In this document: positions 9,045-58,832 of the stretch, one piece after another
Numbering within the stretch: position 1 is the first letter of the stretch
Layout: every line of letters starts with the position of its first letter
DNA from: Spirochaetia bacterium UBA6919
GTDB lineage: Bacteria > Spirochaetota > UBA6919
DNA: 64,000 nucleotides
Direction of reading: 5' to 3'
Assembly: GCA_002450905.1 (NCBI GenBank)
Contig: DKAT01000049.1
Span: 11,554 to 75,553 of the forward strand
Notes under the pieces: generated by a model
The model's input: the letters and a program-made list of their open reading frames with translations, nothing else
The model's database searches: none
Told to the model about the DNA's origin: nothing
Position numbers and translations under genes: made by a program

Positions 9045-9388
9045 TTATAAAACTCCTTAATCAGTGATTATTTTTTATATTGGTATGAGTATAAAATACA
9101 AAATTAACAATTTTTCGATAAAATGAAATTGTTATATATGATAATATAATATATTTCCGATGATTTGATCACATGATTTTTAATATTTTTTGTAAATCTT
9201 CTTTAAAGAACAAGTTAATAATAATTTATATAAAACAAAAAATATTAATTTTATTTTATTAGTAAATGGAATGGTTTCAATTATTTATTTACTATGATAA
9301 TCTAACTTAAGAAAAATTATGATTAACTTAATATAGTTAGGTGTTCATATAATGGTAATCACCAGGAAATTAATTTCGAGAGGTGTTT

Positions 9389-10498
9389 ATGAAAAATATT
9401 GCATTAGTACTCGGTGGTGGTGGAATGAGGGGAATGAGCCACATTGGGGTATTAAAAGCTTTACAGAAGAGGAAAATAAAAATAAGTCAATATATAGGAT
9501 GCAGCATAGGTGCACTTATCAGTAGTTTTGCAGCAAGTGGAATTCCTCCCAAGATGATTGAGAAGTTTGCTAAAAGACTGACTAAAGAAGATATCCTTGA
9601 TTTTCATTGCTTTGACATTTTAAGACGTCGGTTAAAAGTCGGTTGGATTTATCGTGGAGAAAGATTATTAGAGTACCTTAAAAAAAATTTACCTGTTCAT
9701 ACCTTTGATGAATTGACTACCCCACTCTATATTAATTCAATTAATCTGAATTCTGGGAACCTTATTTATTGGGGCTTGCCATCATTCAGAGATGTAACAC
9801 TTGCAGAAGCTGTGTACTCATCCTGTGCATATCCTATAGCATTTAAACCAATTAAAATTAAAGATGAATACTATATTGATGCCGGTATCGTTGATAATCT
9901 CCCTATCAAAGTGACTAGATTTACTAAACCTGATTTGATCATAGCTGTCAATCTCAGATACCGAGGCACATTGGAAGGTAAAAAAATTGAAAATCGCGGC
10001 GTTATTTCCGTAATTGATCAAGTAAATTCTATGATGGGACAAGTTATCTCAGAATATAATTATCAAATTCACCGTGATCTTCATGCCATTTTTATCCATC
10101 CTATAGTTAATCAATATAATTTTCTGGATTTTAGCAATATTCAAGCATTAATTGATGAGGGTGAAAGAGCTACTTATGAAATTTTAGATAAGCATCCTCT
10201 TTTTAGTTCGAAAGATAATGGATTTTCCATCTATGATCTCCTTTTCAAAACAAAACCTATTTTTAATGTTGATCACAATAAATGTACTGGATGTGGAAAT
10301 TGTATCATTCAATGCCCTGCCGATCTTTATAAAATAGATAGTCAGAAAGCTGTATATTTAAAATCTCAGAGAGACAAATGTATTGCGTGTTTAGATTGTA
10401 TCAAACAATGTCCTTATAAGGCTATTTCATTATCTGAAGAGAAACAAACCTTTAGCTTTAGTAATATGCAATACCTTCAAAATATTTTAAGGAAATAA
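9389..10498 (+). CDS. Patatin-like phospholipase fused to a C-terminal 2x[4Fe-4S] ferredoxin domain
   Basis: Patatin oxyanion motif GGGGMRG, nucleophile elbow GCSIG (GxSxG), and a DAG(I)VDN catalytic Asp. The C-terminus has two CxxCxxCxxxCP motifs (CTGCGNCIIQCP and CIACLDCIKQCP). Start taken at the ATG 7 nt after GAGAGG. Confidence 0.75.
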   Translation: MKNIALVLGGGGMRGMSHIGVLKALQKRKIKISQYIGCSIGALISSFAASGIPPKMIEKFAKRLTKEDILDFHCFDILRRRLKVGWIYRGERLLEYLKKNLPVHTFDELTTPLYINSINLNSGNLIYWGLPSFRDVTLAEAVYSSCAYPIAFKPIKIKDEYYIDAGIVDNLPIKVTRFTKPDLIIAVNLRYRGTLEGKKIENRGVISVIDQVNSMMGQVISEYNYQIHRDLHAIFIHPIVNQYNFLDFSNIQALIDEGERATYEILDKHPLFSSKDNGFSIYDLLFKTKPIFNVDHNKCTGCGNCIIQCPADLYKIDSQKAVYLKSQRDKCIACLDCIKQCPYKAISLSEEKQTFSFSNMQYLQNILRK

Positions 10499-10502
10499 TT
10501 AT

Positions 10503-11636
10503 TTGATATATAGAAAGTTTGGGAAGACCGGTAAAATGATTTCCCTCCTATCCTTTGGAGGAATGAGAATACCTAGAATCACTGTAAAAGCCTCAATAAA
10601 TGTGATTAAGCGTGCATATGAACTCGGAGTAAACTTCTATGAAACATCTCCTGGATATGGTGATTCAGAACATAAAATAGGATTAGCTTTAAAGGAAATT
10701 GATCGCTCAAAGGTTTTTATATCCACGAAATCTCACCCGGGTACGGATAAAACAGCTTATGAGGTTAGAAAACGGCTTGATGAATCTTTAAAACGGCTTG
10801 ATCTAGAATATGTTGATTTCTATCAAATCTGGGGTATAAATACAAAAGAACACTTTGATATAGTATTTAACAAGGATGGATACTTAGATGGGATTCATCA
10901 GGCAATGAAAGAAGGATTGATTCAACATATTGGATTTACAACCCATGCAGAACCTTCTTTGATACTTGATATTTTAAATACAAATGAATTTGAAACCGTC
11001 ACATTGATTTACCATCTATATCATCAGAAAAATGAAATCCCAATTCAACGCGCTCATGAATTAAATATGGGTGTTGCTGTTATAGCCCCCCTTTCAAATG
11101 GATTTTTAGCCCATCCGACAGAACAAATGATTGATGATTTCATGCCCTATAACGTAAGAGAATATTCACTCCATTGGTTAGCAAATGATCCAAGAATTAC
11201 AACAATAATTTCAGGGATGAAAACCTTTAAGGAACTGGAAGAGAATTATCAATCGATTGTATCTTTCAATTCATTCAGTAAACTACAAATTAAGAAAGCC
11301 TTAGATGTCCATACCAAATTAAGATTACGAATAGGCAATCAGTATTGTCCAGAGTGCAGAGAATGTTTACCTTGTCCTATGAATATCAATATCCCTGAAT
11401 TAATGAGGATTAACAATATATGGAAAGCTTATCACGCTGAATACTATTGCAAAGATCGGTATAAATTTATGGGAAATGGTGGATCATGGTATCCTGGTGT
11501 AAAAGCTAATCATTGTAATGATTGTGGAGAATGTGAACCAAGATGTTCTGAGAATCTAAAAATTGTTTCAATCATAAAATTACTCCATATAGATCTGTAC
11601 ACAGGTGATCGGTCTACAATTAGTAATCATACATAA
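10503..11636 (+). CDS. Aldo/keto reductase with a C-terminal Fe-S (4Fe-4S-type Cys-rich) extension
   Basis: AKR fold motifs (ETSPGYGDSE, HIGFTTH). The C-terminal region has CPECRECLPCP and CNDCGECEPRC cysteine clusters. Confidence 0.75.
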   Translation: MIYRKFGKTGKMISLLSFGGMRIPRITVKASINVIKRAYELGVNFYETSPGYGDSEHKIGLALKEIDRSKVFISTKSHPGTDKTAYEVRKRLDESLKRLDLEYVDFYQIWGINTKEHFDIVFNKDGYLDGIHQAMKEGLIQHIGFTTHAEPSLILDILNTNEFETVTLIYHLYHQKNEIPIQRAHELNMGVAVIAPLSNGFLAHPTEQMIDDFMPYNVREYSLHWLANDPRITTIISGMKTFKELEENYQSIVSFNSFSKLQIKKALDVHTKLRLRIGNQYCPECRECLPCPMNINIPELMRINNIWKAYHAEYYCKDRYKFMGNGGSWYPGVKANHCNDCGECEPRCSENLKIVSIIKLLHIDLYTGDRSTISNHT

Positions 11637-49457: not shown

Positions 49458-51206
49458 ATGGATAAAATTCTTGGAATCGATCTAGGTACGACTAATTCAG
49501 TCATGGCGGTTGTTGAAAATGGAAAACCAATTATAATCCATAATAAAAAAGGTGATCGCCTTACCCCTTCTGTTGTTGCATTCACAAAGAATAATGAAAT
49601 TCTGGTAGGAAAACCTGCAAAAAATCAGAGTATACTCAATTCTGAAAAAACTATTTCTTCCGTAAAAAGGAATATGGGGACCACTCAAAAATATCAAATT
49701 GGTAAGAATACATATACCCCTCAGGAGATTTCTGCAAAAATCCTCCATAAAATCAAAGAAGATGCGGAAGATTATTTTGGAACAGAAATTTCAAAAGCAG
49801 TCATCACCGTTCCTGCATATTTTAATGACAATCAAAGACAAGCAACTAAGGAAGCTGGACGTATAGCAGGATTTGATGTTCTGAGAATTATCAATGAGCC
49901 CACAGCCGCCGCCCTCGCTTATGGAATCAATGATCATGAAAACCAGGTAATACTAATCTATGATCTGGGCGGAGGGACATTTGATGTATCCATTCTGGAA
50001 ATAGGGGAGGGGGTGTTTGAAGTCAAAGCGACCACTGGAAATAATCATTTAGGTGGTGATGATTTTGATGCAAAGCTAATGAATTATGTTCTGAAAAAAT
50101 ATAAGGAACAAAACAACATAGATCTAACCAAAGATATCATGGCTTGTCAGAAACTCAAAGAAGAAATTGAAAAAGTCAAAATTGAACTCTCAGAAATAGA
50201 ATCCGTTGATCTGAATATTCCATTTATTTCAGCAGATGAAAAAGGTCCAAGACATTTAAATATAAATATAAACAGGCAATTATTTGAAGAACTGATTCAG
50301 GAATATATCGAAGAAACGATCTATCTCATGGAAAAATGTTTAAAAGATAGCAAATTAGAAAAAAATGATATTGACAAGGTTCTTCTTGTAGGTGGTTCTA
50401 CTCGTATTCCATTGGTTTATAATTCTGTTGAAAAAGCATTATCAAAAAAAATATCAAAAGGGGTCAACCCCGATGAATGTGTAGCACTGGGTGCTGCTAT
50501 ACAGGCTTCGATTTTAAGTGGTGAAAAAAAGGGGATGGTGCTTGTTGATGTTACTCCTCTCTCAATGGGAATAGAAATCGAAGGAGGTGTTTTTGTCCCT
50601 ATAATTGAAAGAAATTCAACGATACCTATTACGAAAAGTAAATTATTTACAACGATATCTGATTATCAGCAAAGTGTTGAAATCCGTGTATATCAGGGTG
50701 AAAGAGTCCGCTGTGTGGATAATATATCCCTGGGTGAATGCCAATTAAAAAATATTAGACCAGCCAAAAAAGGTCTCCCTCGAATTGAAGTAAATTTTGT
50801 CATTGATGTCAATGGGATCTTACAAGTCAGCGCTAAAGATCTAGATAGTGGAAATATGCAGAAAGTAATCATAAAAAATCCCACCAGCCTCTCGGATGAG
50901 AAAATACAAAATATTATTGAAAATGCCAAAAAAAATAAACACACGGATCAGGAAGTATTAAAAATTGAGCAAATAAAACAATTGTTTGATACAAGTTATC
51001 AGCGTTTAAAACTATTATATGAAGATAAAATAAATATAATTGATGCGAATTTAAAGAAGGATATACAGACAGCCCTCAAGAAATCCGAAAAAAAAATTAA
51101 AAGACCAAAATCTGATGAACTGGTTGATTTAATAGATCAAATGGATTTTCTCTACGAAGAATTAAAAATAAGTTATTCCAATGACAGAGAAGGGGTAGAA
51201 GTTTGA
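49458..51206 (+). CDS. Hsp70-family chaperone paralogue (HscC-like), not a canonical DnaK
   Basis: Actin-like NBD motifs (IDLGTTNS, DLGGGTFDVS, a second phosphate motif VGGSTRIP) and an SBD-beta. Lid is short; 582 aa total; C-terminus ...REGVEV. There is no grpE/hrcA context. Confidence 0.85.
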   Translation: MDKILGIDLGTTNSVMAVVENGKPIIIHNKKGDRLTPSVVAFTKNNEILVGKPAKNQSILNSEKTISSVKRNMGTTQKYQIGKNTYTPQEISAKILHKIKEDAEDYFGTEISKAVITVPAYFNDNQRQATKEAGRIAGFDVLRIINEPTAAALAYGINDHENQVILIYDLGGGTFDVSILEIGEGVFEVKATTGNNHLGGDDFDAKLMNYVLKKYKEQNNIDLTKDIMACQKLKEEIEKVKIELSEIESVDLNIPFISADEKGPRHLNININRQLFEELIQEYIEETIYLMEKCLKDSKLEKNDIDKVLLVGGSTRIPLVYNSVEKALSKKISKGVNPDECVALGAAIQASILSGEKKGMVLVDVTPLSMGIEIEGGVFVPIIERNSTIPITKSKLFTTISDYQQSVEIRVYQGERVRCVDNISLGECQLKNIRPAKKGLPRIEVNFVIDVNGILQVSAKDLDSGNMQKVIIKNPTSLSDEKIQNIIENAKKNKHTDQEVLKIEQIKQLFDTSYQRLKLLYEDKINIIDANLKKDIQTALKKSEKKIKRPKSDELVDLIDQMDFLYEELKISYSNDREGVEV

Positions 51207-52078
51207 TGACTAAACATCATGATGAAAATTATTATAAAGTGTTGGGAATTGAGTACCACGCAACGGACAATGATATAAAGAGTGCGTATAGGCGATTAAT
51301 GTTACAATACCATCCTGATGTTTCAAAGGAGCCAGTCCGTGTTGATAACTTTGAGAGGGTAGTCAGAGCTTATAAAGTCCTCAGTGATTCTAAAAAACGG
51401 GCTGAATATAATCGAATAAATAATATTAATGCATTTCGATTTACAAACCATTCATACACTGGATTCAAGGAAACTCATGTCAAGGAATTTCCTGAAGAAA
51501 AACCAATCAAATCAAGTGTATTTAGTTCATTCACAGATCGATTTTTTAATAGGAACCCAGAAGAAAAAATATCAGACGAACTTAATAATGCATTTCACGT
51601 CTCAGATGATATTATAAAACTGGATATAGAAGACCTTATCAATCAATATGAAATCAGTACAAATAAATTTGTCAGGATAGAATCATTAAAAGCTATTGTA
51701 AAAAAATTGGGAAAAATGAGTTATAAAATAATAGAAAATGCCTTAGAGGATACAAGTAAAGAGGTTAGAGAGGTTGCTATTAAGGCAATTGGATTACTAC
51801 AAATCAGACAGGGAATCTATTCCCTTGAAAAGTTATATAAAGAAAGCAGTACGGATGTTAAAAAATCGATAGTAATATCAGTAGCTAACTTGCAATTTCA
51901 AAAAAGTAATGATCTTTTATTGAAGTTTTGTTATGATTACAATGATGATATAAAATTGATAGCTTTAAAGGCAGTTCAGCAATATAAATTAAAAAATGTA
52001 TCGCTATTAAAAGGCTTGCTGCACGATAAAAACCCGTCCATAAAACAGTTAGTCCAAAATATCCTTAAAAATAGCTAA
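51203..52078 (+). CDS. J-domain protein with C-terminal HEAT/PBS-lyase-like repeats (DjlC-like partner of the Hsp70 paralogue)
   Basis: J-domain YYKVLGIEYHATDNDIKSAYRRLMLQYHPD with the HPD tripeptide. There is no G/F or Zn-finger region. C-terminal repeats KEVREVAIKAIGLL and DIKLIALKAVQQY. Start overlaps the Hsp70 stop (ATGA). Confidence 0.8.
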   Translation: MMTKHHDENYYKVLGIEYHATDNDIKSAYRRLMLQYHPDVSKEPVRVDNFERVVRAYKVLSDSKKRAEYNRINNINAFRFTNHSYTGFKETHVKEFPEEKPIKSSVFSSFTDRFFNRNPEEKISDELNNAFHVSDDIIKLDIEDLINQYEISTNKFVRIESLKAIVKKLGKMSYKIIENALEDTSKEVREVAIKAIGLLQIRQGIYSLEKLYKESSTDVKKSIVISVANLQFQKSNDLLLKFCYDYNDDIKLIALKAVQQYKLKNVSLLKGLLHDKNPSIKQLVQNILKNS

Positions 52079-53070: not shown

Positions 53071-53367
53071 TTACATTTGATTTTGGAAATCTTGTTGAGC
53101 TTTTTGTAATTTATCAATTAAAGAGATTTCTTCGGAAGTAATACCTCTAAGGGTTTTACCAATTGCATTTTCAGCCCAGATGATTAAGATACGAATATCT
53201 CTTTCAGAGAGATCTAATTTACCAGAATTTGAATTTTTTAACTTATACATAGTTATACTTTCTTCAGGGAAAATAACATTACCATCTCCAAAATGGCCTC
53301 CAGATATTGTATTTTCAGCCCAAATGATCATTTGACGAAGTTCCAGATTAGTTAAAGCAATATCCAT
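53071..53367 (-). CDS. Small protein (98 aa) made of two tandem homologous ~45-aa modules
   Basis: Module 1 is LELRQMIIWAENTISGGHFGDGN and module 2 is ERDIRILIIWAENAIGKTLRG. Sits 3 nt downstream of accC on the same strand. Confidence 0.45.
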   Translation of the reverse strand: MDIALTNLELRQMIIWAENTISGGHFGDGNVIFPEESITMYKLKNSNSGKLDLSERDIRILIIWAENAIGKTLRGITSEEISLIDKLQKAQQDFQNQM

Positions 53368-53370
53368 AGT

Positions 53371-54723
53371 TCAATCCTTGTTGTCATTTAAAGAAAAGTC
53401 TTGTATAAAATAAGTTGAGTAATCTCCTTTTAAAAACTTTTTATCTTCCATAACTTTCCTGTGAAAGGGAATTGTAGTTTCAATACCTTCTATGATAAAC
53501 TCATTCAGACTACGTTTCATTTTATTGATCGCATCGGCTCGATCTTCTCCCCAGACTATTAGCTTAGCCAGAAGGGAGTCATAATATTTAGGAATCATAT
53601 ATTCAGTATATAAATGGCTATCTACCCTTACTCCAAAACCGCCTGGTATGTGATATGATTCTATTTTTCCGATGGAAGGGGTAAAATTTGTATATGGATT
53701 TTCAGCATTAATTCTACACTCAATGGCATGACCCCGGAACTGGATATCTTCCTGCTTGTAACGTAATTTTTTTCCATCTGCCACAAGAATTTGTTCTTTT
53801 ATAAGGTCAATCCCGGTGAGTAGTTCTGTAACCGGATGCTCAACCTGGATACGGGTATTCATTTCCATAAAATAGAACCGCCCCTTGTGGTCAACAAGAA
53901 ATTCTATAGTACCAACGCCCACATAATTCACAGCCTGTGCACCTATAATAGCTGCTTCACCCATGGATTTGCGTAGTTTATCATCGATGTAGGGTGATGG
54001 GGACTCTTCAAGAAGTTTTTGGTGACGTCGTTGAATGGAACAGTCTCTTTCTCCAAGGTGAATCACATTTCCTTTTTTGTCAGCTAGGATTTGAATTTCG
54101 ATGTGATGTGGATTTTCGAAGAATTTTTCTATATAGACTTGAGGGTTATGAAAGGCATTTTCAGCTTCTGATTGGGCTAATTTGAAGGAATCGCGAAATT
54201 CTTTTTCTGAGGGCACCATTCGCATTCCCTTTCCACCACCACCTGCAGTAGCTTTGATGATAACAGGGAAACCAATTTGTTTTGCCTGTTCAAATCCTTC
54301 TTCAATATCAGTAATAATTTCTGTACCAGGAATGACAGGGACTCCCGCTTCTATCATCACCTTACGGGCTTTTGCCTTATCTCCCATCATATCAATGACT
54401 TTTGGTGGTGGTCCGATGAAGTGAATTTTATTTTCTTCGCAGATTTGTGCAAAACGGGAATTTTCAGCAAGAAATCCATATCCCGGATGAATAGCATCTG
54501 CACCTGTGATTTCTGCAGCACTGATAATACTTGGTACGTGGAGATAAGAATTTATTGCTTCAGGGGGGCCGATACAGACATCTTCATCTGCAAAACGTCT
54601 ATGTAAGCTAAATTCATCAGCTATGGAATGGACAGCTACGGTAGCAATACCTAATTCTTTGCATGTTCTTATGATACGAAGGGCGATTTCACCTCGGTTA
54701 GCAATCAATATTTTTTTAAACAT
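53371..54723 (-). CDS. accC: Biotin carboxylase (acetyl-CoA carboxylase subunit)
   Basis: ATP-grasp domain and biotin-carboxylase N- and C-terminal domains: MFKKILIANRGEIALRIIRTCKELGI, GGGGKGMRMV, EMNTRIQVEHPVTE. Confidence 0.92.
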   Translation of the reverse strand: MFKKILIANRGEIALRIIRTCKELGIATVAVHSIADEFSLHRRFADEDVCIGPPEAINSYLHVPSIISAAEITGADAIHPGYGFLAENSRFAQICEENKIHFIGPPPKVIDMMGDKAKARKVMIEAGVPVIPGTEIITDIEEGFEQAKQIGFPVIIKATAGGGGKGMRMVPSEKEFRDSFKLAQSEAENAFHNPQVYIEKFFENPHHIEIQILADKKGNVIHLGERDCSIQRRHQKLLEESPSPYIDDKLRKSMGEAAIIGAQAVNYVGVGTIEFLVDHKGRFYFMEMNTRIQVEHPVTELLTGIDLIKEQILVADGKKLRYKQEDIQFRGHAIECRINAENPYTNFTPSIGKIESYHIPGGFGVRVDSHLYTEYMIPKYYDSLLAKLIVWGEDRADAINKMKRSLNEFIIEGIETTIPFHRKVMEDKKFLKGDYSTYFIQDFSLNDNKD

Positions 54724-54736
54724 AATACCTATTTAA

Positions 54737-55207
54737 TTATTCTTCTTTTAATTGTTCATTATCTATTAATTTAAGTCTGAAAAGGGGTTGTCCATATTCA
54801 ACGGCCTGGCCATCTTCTACAAGGACTTCAACTATTTTACCCTGGATTGTGGAGATAACTTCATATTGAAGATTCATTGATCGGATATGTGCAACAACTT
54901 TACCCTTCGTTATAATTTCTCTTAATTTTACGAGAGATTTACCACCCTTGGATTCACTTCTTTGAAAGAAACCGATATAGGGGGATAGGATATCCTGTGT
55001 GTCTTTAATGTCTTGTTCCTGCTCCTGTACATTTGTTTCAGATTCTTGAATTTGAGGGGGCTGAGGATGAGAGTAGGATTTAAAAGCATTATCAGAGCGA
55101 ATAACTTCGATTTTCTTTTGGGAGTTTTCAATTTTAAAATATTTTGTATCCGTTTCTTTCAAGGCGGACATGATATCTTCGATTAGTTTAATATTCATTT
55201 TTACCAC
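54737..55207 (-). CDS. accB: Biotin carboxyl carrier protein (AccB-like), with Asn at the position of the biotinyl-Lys in the EAMKM-equivalent motif
   Basis: BCCP N-terminal segment (MNIKLIEDIMSALKETD), a flexible linker, and a biotinyl/lipoyl hairpin domain. The motif reads HIRSMNLQYEV where BCCP has EAMKM. I re-translated the DNA: ATG AAT CTT, with the AAT codon at plus-strand 54872-54874. Confidence 0.75.
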   Translation of the reverse strand: MVKMNIKLIEDIMSALKETDTKYFKIENSQKKIEVIRSDNAFKSYSHPQPPQIQESETNVQEQEQDIKDTQDILSPYIGFFQRSESKGGKSLVKLREIITKGKVVAHIRSMNLQYEVISTIQGKIVEVLVEDGQAVEYGQPLFRLKLIDNEQLKEE

Positions 55208-55225: not shown

Positions 55226-55786
55226 TTATCGGACACGCTCAACATATTCACCGGATCTGGTGTCTATCTTTATTTTTTCATTATTGTTCACAAAAAGAGG
55301 CACCTGAAGGGTATATCCAGTTTCAACTGTAGCCGGTTTTGTTGCACCACCAACAGTATCCCCCTTTAAACCTGGTTCAGTGAAGGTGATTTCCAATTCA
55401 ACAAACATAGGTGGATATAAATTAATAATTTGGCCTTCATAGAGTTCCACTTCGATATCCATCCCTTCTTTGAGGTAATTCATAGCGTCATTAATAACTT
55501 CTTTTGGGATATGCTCCTGCTCGTAAGTCTCAGAGTCCATAATAACGATATTATCTCCGTCTTCATAGAGATATTGGACTTTTCGACGCTCAAGATATGC
55601 ATCTTCAATTTTTTCTTCTGATCGGAAGGTCATTTCAACGATGTTATTTTTCTTTAGTAGACGTAATTTAGTTCTGACAAAAGCACCACCTTTCCCTGGT
55701 TTTACGTGTTGGTGTTCAGTAACAGAATATAATTCATTTTCTAATTTAATTACTGTTCCCTTCCTTAAATCATTTGCTGAAATCAT
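55226..55786 (-). CDS. efp: Elongation factor P
   Basis: KPGKGGAFVRTKLR loop with the modified-Lys region, and three OB-like domains. 186 aa. Confidence 0.92.
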   Translation of the reverse strand: MISANDLRKGTVIKLENELYSVTEHQHVKPGKGGAFVRTKLRLLKKNNIVEMTFRSEEKIEDAYLERRKVQYLYEDGDNIVIMDSETYEQEHIPKEVINDAMNYLKEGMDIEVELYEGQIINLYPPMFVELEITFTEPGLKGDTVGGATKPATVETGYTLQVPLFVNNNEKIKIDTRSGEYVERVR

Positions 55787-55906: not shown

Positions 55907-56359
55907 CTATTCTTCTTCCTCTGATTCCTTTAATAGATCGATCATCGAGAGTAAGGCTAATTCGTATCCCTTGGGGCCTAATCCCATGATGATTCCCTTG
56001 GCTATATCGTGGAAGTATGATTTTTGTCTAAAATCTTCTCTTGTATAGATATTTGATAAATGAACTTCTATGAATAATAAATCTCTTGCAAGAATAGCAT
56101 CCCTTATTGCGACAGAAGTGTGCGTATAGGCAGCAGGATTGATTATAAGACCATTGGCCGATATACCCTCCTCCTGAATGTAATCCACTATGGCACCTTC
56201 GTGATTTGAGGAAAATGTTTTGATTTCAATATTATTTAATTTACCCAAACTAATCAAATCGTTATTTATTTCATTGAGGGTTTTTATACCATAAATATTT
56301 TTTTCTCTGGTACCCAAAAGATTCAGGTTTGGTCCGTGTATAACCAATATTGTTTTCAT
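55907..56359 (-). CDS. aroQ: 3-dehydroquinate dehydratase, type II
   Basis: ILVIHGPNLNLLGTRE...IYG is the type II DHQase N-terminal signature. About 150 aa. Start taken at MKTILV. Confidence 0.85.
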   Translation of the reverse strand: MKTILVIHGPNLNLLGTREKNIYGIKTLNEINNDLISLGKLNNIEIKTFSSNHEGAIVDYIQEEGISANGLIINPAAYTHTSVAIRDAILARDLLFIEVHLSNIYTREDFRQKSYFHDIAKGIIMGLGPKGYELALLSMIDLLKESEEEE

Positions 56360-57500: not shown

Positions 57501-58106
57501 TTAGAAGTGTAAAGAGATTTTTAAGGAAAAGAGGTGGGAATAGAATTCGTTTAATTCACTTGATGTTATATAATTTATATGATAAGCTATAGTGAAACTT
57601 AATAATTTAATAAAACGTATTTGTGAGCCGATTTGAAGTGATGAACGCATATAGGGTCCAGGATAGAGAGTCGCTGCTGTTAAGAAACCTGCAAATGGTT
57701 TAATAATTTGGGAATTAAATGGATAGAATAAAAAATTAATTTCTAATCCAGGAAACATCAAAGAAGATTTAGAGGAATCAATAATCAAGTCAGAACTTTT
57801 AATAATACTTATAAATCCACCGATGTTTAAATCAATCTTAGGGGATACAGAAATCCCCAATCCAGTAGAGAAATAGAACTCTCCCCCTTTTTTATGACTC
57901 ATTTCATAAAAGTATCCACCATTTAAATATATAGAATAGCTAGTCTCAATTTTTTCTTTTTTGACAGAATCAAGGGATAATTCTTTATTATCTTTATTTC
58001 TTTCTTGTCCAAAAAATAGCTGGGGAAATAAATTTAAACATAAAATGAATATCCCAATAATAATTCTATTTTTTTGTTTTCTTCCGCCCAAGGGGAAGTA
58101 CCTCAT
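57501..58106 (-). CDS. Small outer-membrane beta-barrel-like protein (hypothetical)
   Basis: Signal-like hydrophobic leader, alternating hydrophobic/polar beta-strand pattern, and a C-terminal aromatic residue (...LKISLHF) typical of OMPs. The annotated start overlaps the BMC-H gene, so the true start is probably later. Confidence 0.4.
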
Positions 58107-58368
58107 CGACGTTATTGTGTGGTCTTGGGATTATGTGTACTGATATTATTTCCCCAACACGTTCTGCAGCTTTACTACCTGCTTCAGTTGCAGCTTTGAC
58201 AGCAGCCACATCGCCCCTAATAATAGTGGTAACATATCCTCCACCCGTTTTTTCATAACCAATTAATTCAACTTTTGCGGCTTTGACCATAGCATCACTT
58301 GCTTCAACCATTGCAGCAAAACCTCTTGTTTCAATCATACCCAAGGCATCTGAAAATACTTCTGCCAT
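58066..58368 (-). CDS. Bacterial microcompartment shell protein, BMC-H (PduA/EutM/CcmK family)
   Basis: Near-consensus BMC domain: [57 protein letters not shown]...VHIIPRPH. Confidence 0.88.
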
Positions 58369-58436: not shown

Positions 58437-58832
58437 CTATTTTCCAAGTATTTTTAAAGCTTTTTTAATTGTAAAGATAACATGCTCATCTTCTTCTATT
58501 TTTAATCGATTTTGGAGAGGATTAAGAGCTTTTGAATCACCAATTTTACCAAGAGCTTCTGCTGAATAAAGACGAACTGACCACTCGGGATCATTTAGAG
58601 TCTTAATAAGAGAGTCCACCGCATTTTTACTTTTCAATCTACCAAGAGATTGTGCTGCTTGTGCCCTTATATAGCCACTTTTACTCTTGTTCAGAGCTTG
58701 TATTAAATATTCCTCATCTTTTTTATTTTCATGTTCACGAATTTGGTCAAATCGATAAGTTGTACAAGAAAAAAGAAATAAGAGAATAGTTAAAATTTTA
58801 AATAAATTGTAATGACTTAAATTGGTTATCAT
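58437..58832 (-). CDS. HEAT/PBS-lyase-repeat lipoprotein
   Basis: Lipobox-like LFSC leader. Repeats IRAQAAQSLGRLKSKNAVDSLIKTLNDPEWSVRLYSAEALGKIGDSKA are the HEAT_2/PBS lyase pattern. Confidence 0.55.
   Translation of the reverse strand: MITNLSHYNLFKILTILLFLFSCTTYRFDQIREHENKKDEEYLIQALNKSKSGYIRAQAAQSLGRLKSKNAVDSLIKTLNDPEWSVRLYSAEALGKIGDSKALNPLQNRLKIEEDEHVIFTIKKALKILGK

Follow-up and report, generated by a model that had tools for sequence, protein, structure and literature searches.

The 64-kb window (the whole stretch of DNA analysed here, 64 000 nucleotides) carries on its minus strand an accB-like gene without the biotin-holding lysine, followed 13 nt downstream by an intact accC. The gene lies within the conserved order aroQ, efp, accB-like gene, accC, and its features and those of its neighbours are as follows.

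53071..53367, minus strand: orf98 (98 aa), starting 4 nt after accC; a possible accessory gene whose membership of the system is uncertain
53371..54723, minus strand: accC, an intact biotin carboxylase (TIGR00514), 13 nt downstream of the accB-like gene
54737..55198, minus strand: the accB-like gene, encoding a protein resembling the biotin carboxyl carrier protein (BCCP) but without the biotinyl-Lys (153 aa plus stop)
54770..55000, minus strand: biotinyl-type beta-barrel domain, residues 67-143 (PF00364-type fold; pLDDT 95-98)
54857..54880, minus strand: hairpin tip S107-M-N-L-Q-Y-E-V114, replacing canonical (E)AMK(L/M)MNEI
54872..54874, minus strand (read 54874 to 54872): codon AAT for Asn109, at the biotinyl-Lys position
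55001..55096, minus strand: low-complexity linker, residues 35-66, poorly conserved and variable in alignments (pLDDT 63-72)
55097..55198, minus strand: N-terminal domain, residues 1-34, a helix and a beta-hairpin, aligning with canonical BCCP N-termini
55226..55786, minus strand: efp, 27 nt upstream of the accB-like gene
55907..56359, minus strand: aroQ (type II dehydroquinase)

The minus-strand open reading frame that holds the accB-like gene (54737..55207) contains ...VVAHIRSMNLQYEVISTIQGKIVEV..., and its hairpin region reads HIRSMNLQYEV. The GTG at 55207, chosen as the start by the ORF tool, is probably not the true start of the gene; the ATG at 55198 is the likely start, because homologues begin with MN or MD.K, and a database protein (P0001) is identical to the 153-aa product from this ATG. 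Against Pfam PF00364 (Biotin_lipoyl) the product scored 38.9 bits (cut-off 22.1) over residues 72-145 of the 156-aa ORF. Its score against NCBIfam TIGR00531 (BCCP), 69.6 bits, was below the equivalog cut-off of 115.2, although the alignment was nonetheless full-length (positions 1-155 of 156).

In a phmmer alignment to E. coli BCCP (EAMKMMNQIEA; 1BDO/4HR7), Asn109 fell on the biotinyl-Lys with no gaps, and it stood in the same column as the Lys of 66 canonical BCCPs, a placement that was the same in two independent alignments and with which an HMM alignment of 81 loci agreed. This bears out the preliminary description of this DNA, which had read AAT at 54872-54874 as Asn at the biotin-attachment Lys of AccB. 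The -3 position, canonically Glu, is Arg in this protein, while the Met at -1 is retained. The nearest lysines upstream, K100 (-9) and K98 (-11), both precede the hairpin, and neither falls in the alignment column of the canonical biotinyl-Lys; K121 lies 12 residues downstream. The earlier statement that the closest Lys was 13 residues downstream is therefore amended, as K121 is at 12 and both upstream lysines are nearer. The suggestion that the hairpin had been misaligned, with the Lys nearby, likewise found no support, given the gap-free alignment and the location of K91, K100 and K121 off the hairpin tip.

Alignments, AlphaFold2 modelling and Foldseek each point to the layout that places the product among BCCP-type proteins, namely an N-terminal biotin carboxylase (BC)-interaction domain, a linker and a C-terminal biotinyl-type barrel. 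The AlphaFold2 model, built from the family alignment, had a mean pLDDT of 86.7 (barrel 95-98), with a disordered linker and an N-terminal domain consisting of a helix (3-14) and two strands (20-24 and 29-33) at pLDDT 82-86. By alignment, this N-terminal domain corresponds to the part of canonical BCCPs that binds and oligomerises biotin carboxylase. The modelled barrel superimposed on the E. coli biotinyl domain (4HR7_G, 1BDO) with an rmsd of 0.8-1.0 Å over 76 columns and a TM score of 0.90-0.95. An insertion of thumb length aligned gap-free with the E. coli segment TPSPDAKA, inside the structural match, with loss of the conserved Pro residues. The earlier claim of full BCCP architecture within an accB-accC pair thus stands, both in the aligned three-part layout and in the accC located 13 nt downstream.

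Selection on the gene was assessed against two related loci (L001 and L002). The pN values were 0.24 for the barrel, 0.27-0.36 for the N-terminal domain and 0.5-0.65 for the linker, whereas pS was saturated at 0.77-0.90; linker pN was close to pS. As pN was far below saturated pS in both folded domains, the N-terminal domain and the barrel are under purifying selection, and a pseudogene interpretation was ruled out on the same grounds. Across the 13-member clade around the window protein 41 residues were invariant, including K91 and K121.

The preliminary description had offered a sequencing or assembly error as one account of the missing Lys and had noted that AAT is one transversion from AAA or AAG. 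The codon relationship is correct, and it is what an error, or a recent inactivating mutation in a pseudogene in the making, would look like; its reading as a single transversion fails, as the trait is lineage-wide and flanking residues have changed too. DNA with zero mismatches across the gene was found in two further assemblies from different runs (Logan SRR5324714 and ENA ERR688355), the Lys is missing in 125 homologues, several further canonical hairpin and thumb residues are altered along with it, and purifying selection on the gene is strong. An error or recent mutation can be set aside with near certainty.

Biotin might instead sit on another lysine, for example K100, K121 or K91, and the invariance of K91 and K121 in the 13-member clade would be in keeping with this. 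However, the model places K91 and K121 off the tip of the beta-hairpin between strands 101-107 and 110-115, where the biotinyl-Lys aligns; the Lys of the GK[IV]VE motif is also present in canonical BCCPs that have their own biotinyl-Lys; and the family does not conserve K100. Also changed are the Glu at -3 and the Met at -1, which lie next to the biotinyl-Lys in canonical proteins. Attachment at another lysine is thus very improbable.

The closest 12 homologues of the accB-like product (49-63 % identity) all read SM[N/S][L/I/V]QYEV at the tip; three of these carry a source name, all of them MAGs and two labelled Spirochaetota. With a profile of this clade as the query, 1.84 billion cluster representatives were screened, and the Lys was missing from 29 of the 33 best hits. 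Among 250 proteins gathered after this search, 53 lacked it, with N (24), H (12), G (10), S (4), D (2) or Q (1) in its place. A second search, for which an alignment of 44 Lys-less members served as the query, returned 99 further homologues, 72 of them without K. This brought the number of distinct Lys-less homologues to 125, with N, S, H, G, D and Q as the residues at the position. Because the residue differs between sub-clades, a new chemical role for the residue itself is improbable.

Named members of the Lys-less family are mostly Brevinematales/Brevinematia spirochaetes: Brevinema sp., Brevinematales/Brevinematia MAGs, ‘Spirochaetes bacterium GWF1_51_8’ and the cultured Thermospira aquatica, whose complete genome (CP073355.1, GCA_023525255.1) carries a member within the interval 2,303,657-2,324,109. 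The Brevinema sp. MAG is assembly GCA_051647245.1. Comparison with canonical BCCPs revealed that the change is not confined to a single residue. The biotinyl-Lys was present in 100 % of canonical and 0 % of Lys-less proteins, the Glu at -3 in 100 % and 6 %, the Met at -1 in 99 % and 28 %, the conserved thumb Pro in 94 % and 6 %, and the conserved Tyr in 90 % and 0 %, respectively. The barrel core, the C-terminal strands and the GQxVEYGQPL motif were retained, and the family could be described by the signature DI.S..VG[FI]F.R...VKLR[DE].V..G...[ML]x[IVL]..E[VI]....GK[IV].E.LVE[ED]GQ[PA]VEYGQPL.RL. The absence of the Lys is ancient, and an entire bacterial lineage has conserved it.

Lys-less proteins were also found outside the spirochaetes. 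In loci of the Armatimonadota and Fervidibacter type the tip residue is Gly and the canonical VKVGD motif is retained; the genes are arranged as accB-like gene, small membrane protein, accC, nusB and folD, with only a small ORF between the accB-like gene and accC. The AccCs of Armatimonadota-type loci scored 494-587 bits against the AccC of the window, compared to about 620 bits for several canonical AccCs from other phyla, and these lower scores speak against a transfer of the operon as a unit. Another lineage has a canonical, Lys-bearing orthologue in an accB-x-accC-nusB arrangement. The canonical BCCP with the most similar C-terminus (P0030) was considered as a same-lineage paralogue and rejected, as it is the ordinary accB-x-accC-nusB orthologue of another lineage. 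A Chloroflexia MAG reads EALAIYTEV and has its accB-like gene in an aroQ-pepP-efp slot with no accC. Taken together, these cases suggest separate losses of the Lys in Spirochaetota, Armatimonadota and Chloroflexia.

The Gly tip and the arrangement of the Armatimonadota-type loci were also seen in a locus recorded as a Methyloversatilis MAG (L079, titled Methyloversatilis discipulorum MAG). Its content, consisting of an accB-like gene, a small transmembrane protein gene, accC, nusB and genes for prepilin-like proteins, is Armatimonadota-like and not betaproteobacterial, and this may be a mis-binned contig. In the two loci of this arrangement for which ORFs were read, a protein of 120-125 aa is encoded between the Lys-less accB and accC (L006, 10438-10800; L079, 10258-10635), with an N-terminal transmembrane helix and a conserved Cys-containing C-terminus, CP..K.PY.YDP.TG.V.CP.H. 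The remaining Armatimonadota-type loci have a similar gap between accB and accC.

In every spirochaete locus inspected (the window, L001-L004, L083, L084, L087, L090 and L091/L092), accC is the next gene downstream of the accB-like gene. In most of the related loci inspected (L002, L004, L023, L083, L084 and L091/L092) efp is the gene immediately upstream of the accB-like gene; the H-type loci L087 and L090 are exceptions. The order MBL-fold gene, aroQ, efp, accB-like gene, accC and orf98 is kept in L002, and L001 keeps at least the last three of these. More generally, pepP and efp usually precede the accB-like gene, and an Asp23-like gene follows accC in some loci. Compared with the housekeeping arrangements efp-accB-accC and, in Armatimonadota, accB-accC-nusB-folD, the gene occupies the ancestral housekeeping accB slot, which indicates a positional orthologue of accB rather than an added paralogue.

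Several other observations were made in and around these loci. The orf98 gene, found only in the sub-clade of the window (the window, L001 and L002), had no Pfam or NCBIfam match and carries an internal repeat (IIWAENTISGGHFGDGNVIFPEE / IIWAENAIGKTLRGITSEE); a relationship to the Asp23/YqhY-like proteins, considered because a Thermospira gene of that kind occupies the same position, was ruled out as there was no similarity. In the two His-type loci (L087, 11808-13789; L090, 11822-13770) two conserved genes without annotation, of about 360 and about 290 aa, lie downstream of accC. These were considered as divergent carboxyltransferases and rejected, as they gave only weak matches of TPR or OMP-like (outer-membrane beta-barrel) type. 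A promoter and terminator scan returned counts equal to the shuffled expectation.

Elsewhere in the window, a lone microcompartment shell protein gene (Pfam BMC) adjoins a gene for a small HEAT-repeat protein (58066-58368 and 58437-58832, both on the minus strand), with no other microcompartment genes visible nearby. On the plus strand, positions 49458-52078 encode a DnaK-like Hsp70 (582 aa) that overlaps by 4 nt with a gene whose product has, by eye, a J-domain and C-terminal HEAT-like repeats; the two resemble a specialised Hsp70/J-protein pair, not the housekeeping dnaK-dnaJ. Also on the plus strand, at 9383-11636, a patatin-like phospholipase carries a fused 4Fe-4S dicluster domain, and next to it is encoded an aldo/keto reductase with a weak, sub-threshold Fe-S dicluster match; both of these domain combinations are unusual.

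The partner gene has remained canonical throughout. The AccC of the window scored 729 bits against TIGR00514 (cut-off 626.5), 597 bits against PDB 9eb7 and 535 bits against E. coli BC, and its ATP-grasp and catalytic motifs align with those of solved biotin carboxylases. Near-invariant columns were defined as those with at least 95 % conservation in a set of 56 AccCs encoded at canonical loci; all 92 of these were kept in the window AccC and 84-92 in the other Lys-less lineages. A search for compensating or convergent AccC changes in the Lys-less lineages gave none in the catalytic core, and the sole column flagged, residue 447 of 450, consists mostly of gaps in canonical AccC. With AccC this well conserved, a biotinylated substrate is still to be expected.

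No second biotinyl domain was found in the 64-kb window or in related loci, using HMM searches of six-frame ORFs. Within the window no accA, accD or birA was recognised on inspection of all ORFs, with Pfam applied to those that were unrecognised. The 10 kb beyond the start of the window, and flanks of up to 10 kb around about 20 related Lys-less loci (HMM, Pfam), also contained no biotinyl domain, carboxyltransferase or birA. As none was found in the sequences covered, the true carrier discussed below is wholly postulated.

Two further architectures were seen among the proteins retrieved. P0194 (309 aa) has a Lys-less biotinyl-type barrel fused ahead of a complete canonical BCCP with N-terminal domain, linker and VEAMKLFNEVEA, a fusion that is compatible with a Lys-less barrel and a canonical BCCP working together. 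P0106 (353 aa) and P0109 (344 aa), from the search of cluster representatives, have two tandem canonical EAMK biotinyl domains after an N-terminal region that is TIR-like by eye, and this unusual architecture is possibly linked to defence or signalling.

The main rival to the reading preferred below is that the organisms have no biotinylated carrier at all. ACC would then be non-functional and lipids would be scavenged, and the accB-like gene and accC would have been repurposed, either for a reaction without protein-bound biotin (on free biotin or another acceptor) or for a regulatory or moonlighting role. This would agree with a gene that is the positional orthologue of housekeeping accB and not an extra copy, and with the lack of any other biotinyl domain, carboxyltransferase subunit or birA in the sequences covered. 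The family also includes a Brevinema sp. MAG, and Brevinema andersonii is host-associated and grown in serum medium. However, AccC keeps its near-invariant residues and an unaltered catalytic core, and a dead pathway or a changed substrate across divergent subfamilies is hard to reconcile with this. Free biotin is also a very poor substrate of biotin carboxylase, and members that are presumably free-living (the hot-spring isolate Thermospira and groundwater MAGs) would be expected to make their own fatty acids. We consider the absence of any carrier unlikely, and the inactivated ACC pathway raised in the preliminary description is not favoured, with 92 of 92 columns kept in AccC and purifying selection on the accB-like gene.

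Plants possess BCCP-like subunits that are not biotinylated, the BADCs, and these associate with BC (PMC12706156, PMC11889953). The reading that we prefer, with a probability of roughly 55 %, is that the accB-like gene encodes a permanently biotin-free BCCP homologue that serves as a non-catalytic, BADC-like partner or scaffold of AccC, and that the true biotin carrier is encoded elsewhere. From the conserved N-terminal domain and the operon linkage we infer that the protein binds AccC and modulates or assembles ACC. Its N-terminal helix and beta-hairpin would bind and oligomerise AccC, as in canonical BCCPs, and its conserved C-terminal barrel would dock on the enzyme while being unable to carry CO2. 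By analogy with plant BADC, it could then act as a scaffold, as an occupancy regulator of the biotin carboxylase half-reaction, or as both. The carboxyl group would be shuttled by a genuine biotinylated carrier encoded elsewhere, either another BCCP or a carboxyltransferase-type protein with a fused biotinyl domain. Such a carrier is postulated, and the effect of the accB-like product on activity may be that of an assembly factor or of an inhibitor. A second functional BCCP with this copy repurposed was among three options in the preliminary description, and it fits best of these, although no second biotinyl domain was found in the window or related loci.

One mechanistic variant of the BADC-like reading is that the protein is mainly a negative regulator, which would compete with the true BCCP for AccC or autoregulate the operon via its N-terminal domain. 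Conservation of the N-terminal domain is consistent with either mode, E. coli AccB is known to autoregulate accBC, and plant BADCs were first described as negative regulators associating with BC. A pure inhibitor made at fixed operon stoichiometry directly upstream of accC would nevertheless be an odd design, and the whole barrel surface is strongly conserved, which suggests that its structural contacts serve more than simple competition. A mainly inhibitory role is therefore possible but not one that we would expect.

A more radical proposal is that in Brevinematia-type spirochaetes, and independently in some Armatimonadota, the sole BCCP-type protein is permanently biotin-free and the fully conserved biotin carboxylase still works with it. 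We regard this as quite unlikely. If true, it would amount to a carboxylase architecture without a conventional covalently biotinylated BCCP, in which the carrier is a non-BCCP protein, a domain fused to the carboxyltransferase, non-covalently held biotin or a different acceptor.

The biotin-carrying lysine is regarded as an essential and universal feature of BCCPs, and BADCs have so far been treated as a plant and algal innovation for the regulation of fatty-acid synthesis. Our study suggests that organising or regulating biotin carboxylase by means of a ‘dead’ carrier subunit is a solution that recurs. It also makes available simple bacterial systems, the cultured Thermospira aquatica among them, in which the role of such subunits could be worked out. 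Some Lys-less proteins are named ‘acetyl-CoA carboxylase biotin carboxyl carrier protein’ in public sources, so metabolic reconstructions may credit genomes with a working carrier that is possibly absent at this locus. No report of a bacterial BADC-like or Lys-less BCCP, or of Brevinematales lipid metabolism bearing on it, was found in the searchable literature.

Compared to canonical AccB/BCCP (E. coli; 1BDO, 4HR7; TIGR00531), the accB-like product shares the three-part architecture, the thumb-length insertion, the efp-accB-accC position and a C-terminal domain that superimposes at 0.8-1.0 Å. It differs in belonging to a family that has lost the Lys, the Glu at -3, the Met at -1, the thumb Pro and the Tyr, and in which VKLR[DE] replaces the canonical V[EK][VI]G[DQ]. 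A purely architectural role for a BCCP segment has a precedent in BC1 of Chloroflexus aurantiacus (8HZ4/8HZ5), where the N-terminal hairpin of BCCP assembles BC into tetramers and increases its activity, in a manner independent of the biotinyl core (PMC11077971). The accB-like product keeps this hairpin in its predicted structure, so a similar role is conceivable, whereas BC1 is a fused BC-BCCP with a normal EAMKM and the accB-like product is a separate polypeptide without the Lys.

Plant BADC is the only described counterpart that we found. Both proteins lack the biotinyl-Lys and have a BCCP-like fold, which in the accB-like gene is kept by selection, and BADCs are non-catalytic regulatory or assembly subunits that act with BC and BCCP. 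BADCs, however, are extra paralogues that coexist with BCCP1 and BCCP2, whereas the accB-like gene sits in the housekeeping accB slot upstream of accC; the analogy may be incomplete because this gene is a positional orthologue of accB and not an additional paralogue. An origin independent of plant BADC is likely, as the Lys was apparently lost separately in Spirochaetota, Armatimonadota and Chloroflexia. In summary, a bacterial and apparently recurrent analogue of BADC, located in a housekeeping operon, would be new.
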